Shown here: positions 5,303 through 45,680 of the stretch, piece by piece | How the letters are laid out: every line of letters starts with the position of its first letter | How positions within the stretch are numbered: the stretch's first letter is position 1 | Assembly (NCBI GenBank): GCA_026683435.1 | Contig: GCA_026683435.1_4866.1 | Reading direction: 5' to 3' (one strand) | Length of the DNA stretch: 64,000 nucleotides | Source: a phage | Translations under genes and position numbers: made by a program | Notes under the pieces: generated by a model | What the model was told of the DNA's origin: nothing | The model's input: the letters and a program-made list of their open reading frames with translations, nothing else | Databases searched by the model: none

Positions 5303-5340
5303 TACCTACTCCCTTGGGAGTAGGTAGGCTTTTATTTTTA
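5303..5340. terminator. bidirectional rho-independent terminator
   Basis: Stem CTACCTACTCCC / GGGAGTAGGTAG flanked by an A-tract upstream and TTTTATTTTT downstream, between convergent genes 4664..5287 (+) and 5346..6503 (-). Confidence 0.7.
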
Positions 5341-5345
5341 TCGCA

Positions 5346-6503
5346 TTATTTACCGATGATATCACGGACCATTGCTTTGATTGTGGCAACAGTACGTTTC
5401 TTTTTCGGCAGCTTGCGGATTTCTGCGTACAGTTTATCCAGGTTCAGCGTTTTCTGTACCTGCGCAACAATCTGCATTTGCTCTTCGTCGATCTTCACTT
5501 CGACGGTTTGTTCCTGCATTTTGCCCAGTTCCTGAATCACACTGGAAACCGATACCGGATAAGCTGTTGATTTTGGACGTTCGATACCGAGGGTAACAAA
5601 GATTTCGTCGTCAATAAACACATTTTCGATATCAACCAAGTTTTCCAGAATGATTTCATCGTGGTCTTCATCTTCCGACGCATTCGGGTATGGACGTTTG
5701 TAGGTGTAATCCCACACGTCATAACCGAGTTTATCTGCGAGTTGTACGAAACCTTCCCAGGTTACTTCGCCGGGGTTGATAGTCTGACCACGGAAACCGG
5801 GGTTGGCCGTAAAGACTTTCACCCAGTCGATGTTCGCGATGTTACGACACTCTTCCAGCGGCGCGTAACGATCTCCCACTTCGTCATTGTCAGTCTCTTC
5901 AACATGCTCTGCTTCACAACGCTCGAAAGTAACTGAGTGTGGTTTACCGTCACCGAAGATAACGGAGGCAGCACGCCAGTCTTCGATAGTCCACTGGACA
6001 TGAGTCAATTCAATGTAACAATGCCCAACCTTAACACGACCATGTGGAGCACTTACTGGTTTAATCAGCTCACCTGGTTCGAAGAAGAATTCGTCAGAAT
6101 GTGCAATGGCATACCAGACACCATCAACACCTTCAACGAGAATAGACCAGTTATAAGGCGCGTGGCAATTTTGGAAAGCTACGCCCAGCATACTTCCCCA
6201 ACGGTCATCTGGCGAATATTTCAGTGGCGGCAGGTTATCAAACTGAAGAGTTTGAGAAGAAAGGCACAACTTATTACGCAGGTGCGGCAGCGGCAGATAA
6301 GCCTCCACATTGTTATCGACCAGCGCATTGTAAAGATCCGGGTTGATAACACCGGTGCCAGTGACGTGTTGTGCAATCAGAGCTTCTGAATATGCACGAA
6401 TACCTTCGTAGCTAAGCACATACGCACGGTCACGTACTACACGAGCCATATCTTCGATTACGGAAATTGGAAATTTCATGTTAATAGTCCTTATAAAAGT
6501 CAA
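5346..6503 (-). CDS. hypothetical protein (385 aa)
   Basis: Long ORF; no recognisable motif. Confidence 0.55.
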   Translation of the reverse strand: MTFIRTINMKFPISVIEDMARVVRDRAYVLSYEGIRAYSEALIAQHVTGTGVINPDLYNALVDNNVEAYLPLPHLRNKLCLSSQTLQFDNLPPLKYSPDDRWGSMLGVAFQNCHAPYNWSILVEGVDGVWYAIAHSDEFFFEPGELIKPVSAPHGRVKVGHCYIELTHVQWTIEDWRAASVIFGDGKPHSVTFERCEAEHVEETDNDEVGDRYAPLEECRNIANIDWVKVFTANPGFRGQTINPGEVTWEGFVQLADKLGYDVWDYTYKRPYPNASEDEDHDEIILENLVDIENVFIDDEIFVTLGIERPKSTAYPVSVSSVIQELGKMQEQTVEVKIDEEQMQIVAQVQKTLNLDKLYAEIRKLPKKKRTVATIKAMVRDIIGK

Positions 6504-6539
6504 TGGTATTTTCAGATGATTAGTTACTGCTGTAAAAAA

Positions 6540-6806
6540 CTAGTTACGGTCGGAATTAAAGACGTGCCAGGTACTACGCCAGCGGAAGAATCGGGTTATG
6601 AAACCACGTATGTGGTAGCCTGAGAACAACATCCAGATCGTGAGAAAAAGCTGCGCCCATGGAGTGGTGAGTTCCATCAAATGCGCGACTATCGCACCAA
6701 CTATCAACATTACCGTGGAGAATAACAAACTATACATCATCGGAATGTTGTGGCTATAGCGTTTCTCCATCCAGTAGAGAAAATTTATTAAACGTTTCAC
6801 GAACAC
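6540..6806 (-). CDS. small membrane protein (88 aa, two predicted TM helices)
   Basis: Hydrophobic stretches SLLFSTVMLIVGAIVAHL and LFLTIWMLFSGYHI. Confidence 0.45.
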   Translation of the reverse strand: MFVKRLINFLYWMEKRYSHNIPMMYSLLFSTVMLIVGAIVAHLMELTTPWAQLFLTIWMLFSGYHIRGFITRFFRWRSTWHVFNSDRN

Positions 6807-6814
6807 ACATCCAA

Positions 6815-6852
6815 GAATTAAATAAAAGGTGGTCAGACCCGAAGGTCTGACC
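6815..6852 (-). terminator. rho-independent terminator
   Basis: Stem GGTCAGACC / GGTCTGACC with loop CGAA; on minus strand followed by ACCTTTTATTTAATT; sits after stop of 6858..7451. Confidence 0.6.
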
Positions 6853-6857
6853 GTTAA

Positions 6858-7451
6858 TTACGCATCGGCCTCAAAGAACGGCTGGTTTGGTACCACTGCG
6901 TATTCGAGCACGAACAGATGTTCTGGGGCATCTTCTGCTCGCCACAGTTTGTGGCACGTTGCCAGTTTTTCCAGGATGGTCAACCAGCTGAGCTGGCAGA
7001 AAGCACGGTCGCCGAAGAACAGTTTCTGCAGTGCAATCGACACATCCATATACGCCTGTTTGAAGTCGAGTTCTTTATCGTAACCCGCCGACTGTCGCCA
7101 CGTCAGCACGAAACCTGCTTCGGTTTCGTTAATTGCTGGACGTAAACCACAAATCCACATCAGTGCCAGATTAACGTTCCAGTCGAATTCGATACCTTCG
7201 TCTTCGTCATCACCAAACGCCGCGTTTAACGCATCGTAGAAACCGTGGTTCTCTGCGAACCATTCGCCGTACTCAACGTAGACCGGTGCTTCGACAGCTT
7301 CCCCATCGACTTCACCGATAGGACGCTCTACATAGTTCGGGTTGGTTTGAACGTGTTCCGCACCCGCGCGAATTAATTCGTAGACATCTTTGGCGGTGAT
7401 TTGTGCGGCTGTTTTAAGACCTGGATACCAGGGGCGTGTTACGAGTGTCAA
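6858..7451 (-). CDS. hypothetical protein (197 aa)
   Basis: ORF; acidic protein, no motif recognised. Confidence 0.5.
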   Translation of the reverse strand: MTLVTRPWYPGLKTAAQITAKDVYELIRAGAEHVQTNPNYVERPIGEVDGEAVEAPVYVEYGEWFAENHGFYDALNAAFGDDEDEGIEFDWNVNLALMWICGLRPAINETEAGFVLTWRQSAGYDKELDFKQAYMDVSIALQKLFFGDRAFCQLSWLTILEKLATCHKLWRAEDAPEHLFVLEYAVVPNQPFFEADA

Positions 7452-44392: not shown

Positions 44393-44409
44393 GCAAAGAA
44401 AATAAAGGC

Positions 44410-44450
44410 CCTACCTCCCCGAAGGGAGGTAGGTACCTTTTATTTATTTC
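44410..44450. terminator. bidirectional rho-independent terminator
   Basis: CCTACCTCCC / GGGAGGTAGG stem with loop CGAA, A-tract before and TACCTTTTATTTATTT after; between convergent genes. Confidence 0.7.
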
Positions 44451-44472
44451 TTAGAAACTACTAATTGCTCTG

Positions 44473-45021
44473 TTACACGACAGTGTGACCTTCGCCGCCG
44501 AATCCGCCCAGTTCACCGTTGGTGGTGCTCAGGTCAGTTTTAACGATTGGCTGCGTTACAGTATAAACTGCAAGGCTGGCAGGTTGGTATTTAATGTGGC
44601 CTTCTTTCACCTTAACAGTGATGACTTTCTCACCACTGCTGCCGTCCTCGCGTGTAATGGTGAGTTCAGACAACGCAAACGCATCTTCCGTTTCACCGTC
44701 GCCAAATAGTTCTGCGTTGACAAAAGCAAGCACTTCTTCATCGGTATCCCATTCTGCCTGGTCAGCGGTAACTGCTTTCGCACCGATGATGTTCGATGAA
44801 TCGAGGCGGGTATAATGCAGCTCTTTCTCGCCAGTAAAGTTAGCGGATTCCGCGGTGGCAGTGATGGTGAGTTTGGAGTTGCGAGTGTCTCCAGAATCTG
44901 CTGGTGAATAGTCAGCAACAGCGCCGAATGTAACGTCAGCAGAAGTTAACGGACTAGACAGTCCGCTGTTTGCAGCATTAAACAGCGCGACGAGTTGGTC
45001 TTTTGCAGAGATGACTGCCAT
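44473..45021 (-). CDS. N-module family protein (182 aa), short member
   Basis: N-terminus matches the shared ~75-aa module of the 47.9-64 kb array; C-terminus ...TTNGELGGFGGEGHTVV resembles the NGELDGF tails of 53991..55409 and 57366..58778. Confidence 0.55.
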   Translation of the reverse strand: MAVISAKDQLVALFNAANSGLSSPLTSADVTFGAVADYSPADSGDTRNSKLTITATAESANFTGEKELHYTRLDSSNIIGAKAVTADQAEWDTDEEVLAFVNAELFGDGETEDAFALSELTITREDGSSGEKVITVKVKEGHIKYQPASLAVYTVTQPIVKTDLSTTNGELGGFGGEGHTVV

Positions 45022-45144
45022 GGTTGTTTCCTTATAGTAGGTTTGTGGTGCATACTAAATCGTTCTAAAAACAACATAGTGGGCTTAATATGACAGTAAA
45101 GTTGGCTGTTAAACGAGAAAGTTTTTACCACTGAAAGGTACTCT

Positions 45145-45636
45145 ATGAAACGTCTATTTATCGTATTCGCGATTATAAACCTGTTGGCCGGTTGTGTTCA
45201 GTCGCCAAGCAACATAGGACAATTTAGCGCCACACCAGTAAAGAATCACGACTTGGTGATTTATACATGCACAGGGACGCAGGAGAAGTTTGTAGACTAC
45301 CGTCCGGTACTGGACAACCTACAAATGATGCCGCGGTCAGTAACAGTAATGGATGTGGGTGCAAACTGGGTAGCAGCGTGGGACGGTGGCAAACTAGAGT
45401 CACCGATGATGTTTAAAGATACAATTGGCAAAATCGACGGGAATGTTAACACCACCACAGGTGAGCGTTATTACCGTATTAATAAAACCGTAAACGATAG
45501 CCCCACTTATTCTTTTTCGGATGTGAACCCGTATACCGGCGAAGGTAAAGGGATGACATTCTTTCGCTGCAGCAGCGGGTTTATCGGTGAAGTTCCTACT
45601 CCGATTACGATTGTTCCGTTAGAAGAAAATAAATAG
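45145..45636 (+). CDS. lipoprotein (163 aa)
   Basis: MKRLFIVFAIINLLAGC: signal peptide with lipobox LAGC. Confidence 0.55.
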   Translation: MKRLFIVFAIINLLAGCVQSPSNIGQFSATPVKNHDLVIYTCTGTQEKFVDYRPVLDNLQMMPRSVTVMDVGANWVAAWDGGKLESPMMFKDTIGKIDGNVNTTTGERYYRINKTVNDSPTYSFSDVNPYTGEGKGMTFFRCSSGFIGEVPTPITIVPLEENK

Positions 45637-45639
45637 TGT

Positions 45640-45680
45640 TTACCCACTCCCGTAAGGGGAGTGGGTAAGGGCTTTATTTA
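45640..45680 (+). terminator. rho-independent terminator
   Basis: TTACCCACTCCC / GGGAGTGGGTAA stem followed by GGGCTTTATTT. Confidence 0.55.

Follow-up and report, generated by a model that had tools for sequence, protein, structure and literature searches.

The closest described counterparts of the elements considered here come from giant Pseudomonas phages. In phiKZ, 133 terminators were mapped by Oxford Nanopore Technologies (ONT)-cappable-seq (Putzeys et al. 2024, PMC10914365); a conserved motif, 5'-BCCYCCCCHWWDGGGRRGGBYTTATKYYGT-3', was found in 61 mapped terminators, and six bidirectional terminator regions lie between convergent genes (PMC10914365). In 201phi2-1, studied by the same method, 59 terminators carry motif A, which is close to the phiKZ motif; versions with an elongated stem terminated more strongly, and the terminators that were tested functioned in uninfected P. 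chlororaphis (PMC11512511). Here we describe four similar hairpins, W1 to W4, in a phage DNA stretch of 64,000 nucleotides (contig GCA_026683435.1_4866.1 of GenBank assembly GCA_026683435.1; the whole stretch is called the window below), which probably act as strong bidirectional intrinsic terminators of the phiKZ-like kind. By its sequence the window comes from a jumbo phage of the SPN3US-like (Seoulvirus) kind: identity to SPN3US, the SPFM phages and SEGD1 is 94-98%, and the window is collinear with SPN3US and its relatives (including phage 1252) and oriented in reverse to the SPN3US record. SPN3US, of the genus Seoulvirus, is a 240-kb phiKZ-related jumbo phage with Salmonella as its host. 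Seven genes in its record are annotated as beta-type subunits of RNA polymerase; in SPN3US and phiKZ such subunits are known to form virion and non-virion multisubunit polymerases, a trait of the phiKZ-like group.

The open reading frame map of the window contains exactly four convergent gene junctions, and a hairpin lies at every one of them (Table 1). Each stem is a perfect palindrome of 10-13 bp built of Watson-Crick pairs only, with zero G-T pairs. On the + strand an A-rich tract stands 5' of each hairpin and a T-rich tract 3' of it, so that a T-tract follows the hairpin in both directions of transcription. The tail starts 0-3 nt from the stem in seven of the eight site-strands, and on the minus strand of W2 the T-run starts about 5 nt past the extended stem. 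Hairpins begin 3-31 nt past the stop of the + gene and end 8-93 nt short of the stop of the - gene. Predicted folds of all eight site-strands range from -22.9 to -30.8 kcal/mol (z -5.0 to -5.9), and none of 200 shuffles was equally stable. Every site combines the features of an intrinsic terminator, a stable hairpin, a U-rich tract and a position just past a stop codon, with those of a bidirectional one, a palindrome with A- and T-tracts between convergent genes; a built-in terminator scan picks up all four, W1 and W3 on both strands and W2 and W4 on the + strand only.

Table 1. Terminator-like hairpins of the window discussed in the text (window coordinates; predicted RNA folds in kcal/mol)
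Feature	Hairpin	Strand	Stem-loop-stem	Element span	Neighbouring genes	Tracts and remarks	RNA fold
W1	5302-5327	both	CTACCTACTCCC-TT-GGGAGTAGGTAG; stem also written CTACCTACTCC(C)-loop-(G)GGAGTAGGTAG	5288..5342	gp064 orthologue (+, stop 5287); gp065 orthologue (-, stop 5346)	A-tract 5288-5301; T-tract GCTTTTATTTTT 5328-5340	-24.0 (+) / -22.9 (-); z -5.3 / -5.1
W2 (core)	23206-23230	both	ACCCTACTCCC-AAC-GGGAGTAGGGT	23192..23246	gp094 orthologue (DUF1471, +, stop 23175); gp095 orthologue (-, stop 23238)	longer stem of 23202-23236 possible if one T bulges; tail downstream CTTTTATTTTTTT	-26.3 and -24.4; z -5.8 and -5.5
W3	44410-44433	both	CCTACCTCCC-CGAA-GGGAGGTAGG	44396..44450	gp105 orthologue (+, stop 44392); gp106 orthologue (-, stop 44473)	TTTATTT tails on both strands	-25.6 and -27.5
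W4	45639-45669	both	TTTACCCACTCCC-GTAAG-GGGAGTGGGTAAG	45626..45684	gp107 orthologue (+, stop 45636); gp108 orthologue (-, stop 45762)	TTTATTT tails on both strands	-30.8 and -26.9; z -5.9 and -5.5
Second-family hairpin	2222-2245	read on -	CCCTCTTACC-TTCG-GGTAAGAGGG		co-directional genes	orthologue of SPN3US 180981	
G-free-arm terminator, other sub-family	47845-47866	-	CCTCTTCCCC-ACGG-GGGAAGAGG		co-directional - genes	SPN3US 135393	

Our comparisons drew on two whole genomes, SPN3US and its distant congener Erwinia phage pEa_SNUABM_29 (pEa29), whose nucleotide-level alignment spans about 199 kb, and on one 50-kb sample each of phiKZ (the first 50 kb), Goslar (1-50,000), T4 and E. coli K-12; the controls are small, the E. 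coli, T4 and Goslar samples giving 5-11 terminator-like hairpins apiece. All four hairpins follow the phiKZ grammar, in which a pyrimidine 5' arm devoid of G closes with a C-run, the loop has 3-5 nt and a purine 3' arm starts with GGG(A/G). Hairpins in the phiKZ sample (CCCTCCC-ttcg-GGGAGGG, GCCTCCC-ttcg-GGGAGGC and GCCCTCCC-attgc-GGGAGGGC) are each followed by (c)tttat, and the core CTCCC-N2-8-GGGAG occurs there six times, against 0.03 expected. The window has five such cores against 0.16 expected (0 of 100 shuffles reach five), four of them being W1-W4, while the 50-kb samples of E. coli, T4 and Goslar contain neither the core nor any G-free arm. TTAT occurs in the tails of six of the eight site-strands, of 35 of 70 in SPN3US and of 13 of 20 in phiKZ, as raw counts.

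Like phiKZ and 201phi2-1, then, the window derives from a giant phage with its own multisubunit polymerases, and the likeness extends to the pyrimidine 5' arm leading to a C-run or CTCCC, the short loop, the purine 3' arm from GGG(A/G) and the TTAT-containing T-tract; with phiKZ in particular it also has in common bidirectional versions between convergent genes and enrichment of the exact core. Unlike in phiKZ, the stems of W1-W4 are 10-13 bp rather than about 7-9 bp long and carry A in YAC contexts (CCTAC, CCCAC), the phage is of the Salmonella/Seoulvirus lineage, the sub-family clusters where genes converge, and the elements were read from sequence whereas those of phiKZ were mapped by transcripts. 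Apart from the shared core, this lineage and phiKZ have no nucleotide similarity. Judged by their sequences, W1-W4 are the SPN3US-lineage counterpart of the known phiKZ-kind terminators, not instances of the phiKZ motif. Bidirectional intrinsic terminators between convergent genes also occur in bacteria. Our elements resemble canonical bidirectional terminators, such as T50 of phage LUZ7 (PMC10204088), in their perfect hairpin, their A-tract and U-tract, their place in a convergent gap and the termination predicted for both strands, but canonical ones normally have no common stem sequence, whereas W1-W4 are related in sequence, with purines and pyrimidines divided one-sidedly between the arms.

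How alike are the four? The nine loop-proximal pairs of W1 are the same in W2; W4 departs from W1 by two C/T transitions, with the partners compensated, and W3 equals W1 with one additional C-G pair. The loop-proximal 10-mers have a mean pairwise edit distance of 2.83, compared with 6.21 for random foursomes of other terminator-like hairpins of the same genome (P=0.001). Because the restricted alphabet of the 5' arm (C, T and a few A) inflates apparent similarity, tests against G-free hairpins and against composition shuffles were also run. Relative to other G-free hairpins only, the mean distance to be compared is 4.6 (P=0.04). When each SPN3US arm was shuffled internally, with or without the three loop-proximal bases held fixed, 1.2-1.3 arm pairs with at least 8 nt in common were expected; nine are observed, a count reached in 0 of 2000 shuffles. 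The original prediction, of terminator-type hairpins at convergent junctions that are more similar than hairpin formation requires, is thus borne out, both by the tracts and both-strand folds at the four junctions and by a similarity clearly above that among other GC-rich hairpins. The stem formula that came with it captures a real similarity only approximately, base-pair insertions and deletions being needed to align the copies.

The proposal of a family of four at convergent junctions also needs widening, because the family is real but has more copies, including some outside such junctions, and is part of a genome-wide style. In a hairpin-plus-T-tail scan of the whole SPN3US genome, a copy at 186744, outside the region covered by the window, matched W4 in reverse complement over 27 identical nt, loop included, and ACCCTACTCC-TTCG-GGAGTAGGGT was found between co-directional genes at 113924. 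A second exact family, CCCTCTTACC-TTCG-GGTAAGAGGG, has three SPN3US copies (180981, 67345 and 94154), all between co-directional genes and with unrelated flanks. In this style a pyrimidine 5' arm free of G runs up to CTCC(C) at the loop, which is short (often TTCG or CGAA); a purine 3' arm from (G)GGAG and a (C)TTTAT tail follow. Its polarity is marked: the loop-proximal 7 nt of the 5' arm lack G in 27 of the 65 SPN3US terminator-like hairpins and lack C in one, with no such bias among hairpins without a T-tail (9 of 286 without G and 24 of 286 without C). About 60% of the SPN3US terminator-like hairpins fall outside the style, and the whole G-free class has only two constants, a 5' arm without G and C-G pairs that close the loop. 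Close copies number fewer than 10 per genome.

When junctions are classed by how the annotated genes are oriented, a G-free hairpin stands at 11 of the 13 SPN3US convergent junctions that have a called hairpin but at only 16 of 53 other sites (Fisher p=9e-4); the corresponding figures for pEa29 are 10 of 13 and 12 of 48 (p=1e-3). Stems are about 11 bp long at convergent junctions and about 9 bp elsewhere. The link between G-free hairpins and convergent junctions is statistically sound, although not exclusive. One convergent junction (SPN3US 28586-28624 / pEa29 105653-105690) is a stable exception, its gaagggactgggcgtcccttc-type palindrome having a purine-rich 5' arm in both phages. Beyond these genomes, a scan of IMG/VR for CCTACTCCC-N2-6-GGGAGTAGG gave 45 sites, mostly in contigs of 218-246 kb and with up to four in single contigs of 235-236 kb, and from these sequences the stem type appears to be common in the wider SPN3US/Erwinia jumbo-phage group. 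A scan for CCCACTCC...GGAGTGGG had many unrelated small contigs among the matches listed and was left unused as too unspecific; a fixed-loop family pattern added nothing, and an Rfam search of the window found no matching RNA family.

As the CCTACTCCC...GGGAGTAGG scan is biased by construction, it was replaced by sampling orthologous junctions in IMG/VR through their flanking proteins, which avoids motif-search bias. At the W2 junction (flanking protein 63-81% identical) the orthologues have the stems ACCCTACTCCC, CTCCTACTCCC, CTCCTACCCTC and CCTACTCCCC with five or more different loops, retaining CCTAC and the G-free arm and showing compensated changes. Orthologues of the W1 junction (flanking protein about 48% identical) carry the stem (G)CCCACTCC, which is the W4 type, and those of the W4 junction carry TACCCACTCC, TACCCTACTCC (the W2 type) or TACCCTCCTGC, with hairpins that are unrelated or of reversed polarity in more distant contigs. 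For the W3 junction the gp105 query returned SPN3US itself as its only IMG/VR match. Between SPN3US and pEa29, many orthologous terminators have the same stem with a changed loop, a few are swapped for another G-free hairpin, and compensated double changes are seen (AGCTTACTCCC to AGCTTACACCC and ACCCTACTCCC to CTCCTACTCCCC). The W1 stem recurs with a different loop at SPN3US 177902 and pEa29 199876, and the W4 stem is conserved in pEa29 and SPAsTU, again with different loops. In none of the orthologues is a pair broken; the loops vary freely, and almost every change consists of a paired transition or the gain or loss of a base pair, a pattern that automatically keeps the 5' arm pyrimidine-only. 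Going by these alignments, unbroken pairs with free loops are the pattern predicted by selection on an RNA hairpin, and the four stem types are interchangeable neighbours in a small sequence space.

We put at roughly 0.68 the probability that W1-W4 are strong bidirectional intrinsic terminators of the phiKZ-like kind whose likeness comes from descent or local copying in a narrow sequence space. Whichever strand is transcribed, the nascent RNA would fold the same 10-13 bp hairpin and then expose a U-rich tract, usually (C)UUUAU; together these would release a polymerase arriving from either side, leave a stable protective 3' stem-loop on both mRNAs and insulate the converging units by preventing read-through into the antisense strand of the neighbouring gene. 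The shared stem would be the local form of a lineage-wide terminator style whose long form is preferred at convergent junctions, and the extra likeness of W1-W4 would reflect descent, or the copying of short patches, among sequences that lie very few mutations apart, their differences being single compensated C-G/T-A transitions or one-base-pair indels, for which a dedicated recognition protein would be unneeded. The long G-free form looks like the lineage's 'strong terminator' class, a reading that fits both its enrichment at convergent junctions and the effect of stem length in 201phi2-1. A common origin with spread, one of the two causes suggested at the outset, receives some support from the 27-nt identical SPN3US copy, from stem types that turn up at differing junctions in relatives, and from the one junction at which relatives hold another member of the family.

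Why should the arms be so consistently polarised? Our own proposal is that the polarity may be favoured because it gives cleaner co-transcriptional folding. We modelled the nascent transcript as 40 nt of upstream sequence, the 5' arm and the loop, and compared it with variants in which random base pairs were flipped. The predicted probability that the 5' arm is free was 0.58-0.91 for the native sequences and averaged 0.40-0.57 for the pair-flipped variants; the native arm was freer than the variant mean in all eight site-strands, with 3-24% of variants matching or exceeding it. Native hairpins were also predicted to be slightly more stable than most pair-flipped variants, and full reversal of polarity left the 5' arm less free in seven of the eight site-strands.

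Several points weigh against our favoured explanation. The folding rationale is suggestive only, coming from a thermodynamic model of eight related sequences. The first 50 kb of Goslar, a nucleus-forming jumbo phage of E. coli from the wider group, are without such hairpins, so the style is not universal. The literal phiKZ consensus BCCYCCCCHWWDGGGRRGG is unmatched by W1-W3 even with up to three mismatches and is matched by W4 alone at three, and the tie to phiKZ, on the sequences compared, is therefore one of shared grammar and CTCCC/GGGAG core rather than of the same motif. Our search of the literature found no transcript 3'-end data for SPN3US-like phages; hence it is from the DNA that we infer termination at W1-W4, the polymerase terminated and the reason for the arm polarity. 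Finally, the exact recurrences include non-canonical loops (GTAAG), and the same stem types persist at orthologous junctions where the flanking proteins are only about 48-64% identical. Neither observation is predicted by purely structural selection, which leaves room for sequence-level selection or ongoing copying.

Do the phiKZ-like giant phages, the SPN3US lineage included, then have a private terminator code, in which stem sequence and polarity (the G-free 5' arm and the CTCCC/GGGAG core) are read specifically by a phage component and conservation marks recognition beyond pairing? Proposed readers would be a non-canonical phage RNA polymerase, some factor associated with such a polymerase, a termination or antitermination factor, or an RNA-binding or processing protein such as a phage ribonuclease; the SPN3US ribonuclease genes gp059 and gp060 adjoin the region. 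That the same core is enriched in phiKZ and in the SPN3US lineage despite no other nucleotide similarity, and is absent from the T4, E. coli and Goslar samples, speaks for such a code, as do the 27:1 one-sidedness of the arms and loop-proximal 8 bp that stay within one step even at 48-64% flanking-protein identity. We consider it unlikely all the same, because the G-free class fixes nothing besides 'no G' and the loop-closing pairs, because orthologous stems tolerate compensated changes (TCCC to CCTC, T to A), and because so large a part of the terminator-like hairpins lies outside the style. As free words, arm 8-mers occur 5-12 times against 1.7-3.0 expected, an excess explained by the hairpin copies themselves, and no candidate binding protein was identified. 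Related motif-bearing terminators of 201phi2-1, moreover, function with the host polymerase alone in uninfected bacteria (PMC11512511). Recognition by a specific factor, the other cause originally suggested, is accordingly neither needed to account for the stems nor demonstrated by them. Were the code real, stem sequence and polarity, beyond stability, would set termination or 3'-end processing, and phage transcription units would be kept apart from host-type signals inside the phage nucleus.

Slightly less probable still is that the hairpins are chiefly recombination modules, kept alike by ectopic recombination or gene conversion and serving as homology patches for cassette exchange, with termination only a partial role. 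Exact recurrences of 24-27 nt within one genome, and the interchange of family types at orthologous junctions, are what this would lead one to expect. At the W3 junction of pEa29 and SPAsTU, a different G-free hairpin, CCTCTCTACC-CTAG-GGTAGAGAGG, replaces that of the window and extra paralogous genes are present; this hairpin stands at two pEa29 junctions. W3 and W4 also bracket a divergent two-gene unit. Close relatives differ by inversions of the loop: that of W3 is CGAA in the window (44420-44423) and TTCG in SPN3US (138817-138820), with stem and flanks identical and in the same orientation. Further exact inversions are tacg versus cgta (SPN3US 168129 and pEa29 209481) and, in the comparison of W4 with the 186744 copy, cttac versus gtaag (SPN3US 137590 and 186744). 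These suggest strand-switching at the DNA level, or a flip within the palindromes, and such a flip exchanges which transcript carries the very stable UUCG tetraloop. Against a recombination role, the likeness of identical paralogous copies ends at the hairpin and its A/T tracts, the flanks having nothing in common, with neither an extended cassette nor a promoter part; the window is collinear with SPN3US and pEa29; gene content changes at one junction only; and for homologous recombination, arms of 10-13 bp make a very short substrate. The indels that separate the window from SPN3US, two of them large, lie away from the hairpins, which were not seen as mosaic boundaries: where identity drops beside W3, the cause is an indel of 21 nt in the adjacent gene. 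Inversion of gene blocks between two palindromic terminators was likewise rejected, as the divergent ends of the blocks are without hairpins and no inversions were found among the relatives.

The precedent for such modules is the PeSL promoter-terminator cassettes of T4-type phages, which are repeated intergenic stem-loops of large virulent phages for which spread and shuffling have been proposed (PMC2839356, PMC4122927). PeSLs are composite, comprising an early promoter and a stem-loop, are longer, and stand beside variable open reading frames in hyperplastic regions (PMC2839356, PMC4122927), whereas W1-W4 are alike in hairpin and tracts only and the genomes that hold them are collinear. A composite cassette of this type was rejected on the flanks of the identical paralogous hairpins, which show no similarity beyond the A/T tracts.

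Small palindromic repeats of a selfish kind, inserted in intergenic gaps and terminator-like in looks only, are a very improbable source. There are multiple copies per genome, as the CCTACTCCC...GGGAGTAGG contigs illustrate, and the repetitive extragenic palindromic (REP) sequences and bacterial interspersed mosaic elements (BIME) of enterobacteria are likewise palindromes that recur in 3' untranslated gaps, in many cases where genes converge. REPs are imperfect, without T-tracts, present in hundreds of copies and dependent on a dedicated transposase. W1-W4, unlike REPs, have perfect stems with T-tracts and few copies, every one at a place that calls for a terminator; their orthologous positions hold from genus to genus, loops and outer stems vary between copies, single-arm copies are not above expectation, the SPN3US annotation lists no transposase of the REP-associated type, and Rfam gave no match. 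Elements resembling REPs or miniature inverted-repeat transposable elements (MITEs) were rejected on this account. DNA uptake sequences of Neisseria and Pasteurellaceae also place the same stem in many terminators of one genome, but there the stem is a word recognised by separate machinery and hugely over-represented singly (PMC1852404); the arms of W1-W4 are not, and terminators of that type were set aside. Mimicry of Shine-Dalgarno or anti-Shine-Dalgarno sequences by the arms was also rejected, since no start codon follows at the convergent junctions, and at the co-directional copies the next start is more than 100 nt away. Chance likeness among GC-rich terminator hairpins, to which the narrow 5'-arm alphabet and the modest contrast with G-free hairpins (P=0.04) might lend some credit, is ruled out by the shuffles, the resampling and the excess of the core.

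These observations extend the conserved-terminator phenomenon, experimentally mapped in the Pseudomonas phages phiKZ and 201phi2-1, to the enterobacterial SPN3US-like phages. They add to it the strict purine/pyrimidine polarity of the arms, the preference for the long form at convergent junctions, and the persistence of a few stem types across genera while loops drift and flip, points that open to direct test why the terminators of these phages are standardised. The advance is a modest one, since related phages had already revealed this kind of element and its likely function; the observation was correct and is largely explained. In practical terms, W1-W4 are short candidates for bidirectional terminators in the engineering of Salmonella and E. 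coli, and in the annotation of SPN3US-like genomes they reliably mark where transcription units end.

Some neighbouring features deserve mention. The small + gene that ends at W2 (window 22966-23175), the orthologue of SPN3US gp094 with its DUF1471 (enterobacterial YhcN-like) annotation, has the look of an accessory gene of host origin whose 3' end carries a member of the terminator family. A short repeated motif, ctctaaaacgctctgtaacgctctctaag, lies at about 45680-45730, in the stretch from W4 to the stop at 45762 of the - gene; it represents copies of AGAGCGTT on the - strand and forms a small AGAGCG/CGCTCT inverted repeat. The position of this repeat is conserved in SPN3US, pEa29, SPAsTU and several IMG/VR relatives (as TTAGA-R-N-GCGTT-type repeats), and it may serve for protein binding or regulation within the 3' untranslated region. 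The 21-nt difference from SPN3US adjoining W3 is an insertion in the window (44490-44510) near the 3' end of the - gene at 44473-45021, the gp106 orthologue, of which pEa29 and SPAsTU have two to three paralogous copies in a row. Compared with SPN3US, the window is missing about 2.9 kb at about 51,700 (SPN3US about 128,680-131,545) and about 70 bp at about 54,160. Both missing stretches fall inside a tandem array of paralogous virion structural protein genes, an arrangement consistent with unequal recombination between paralogues.

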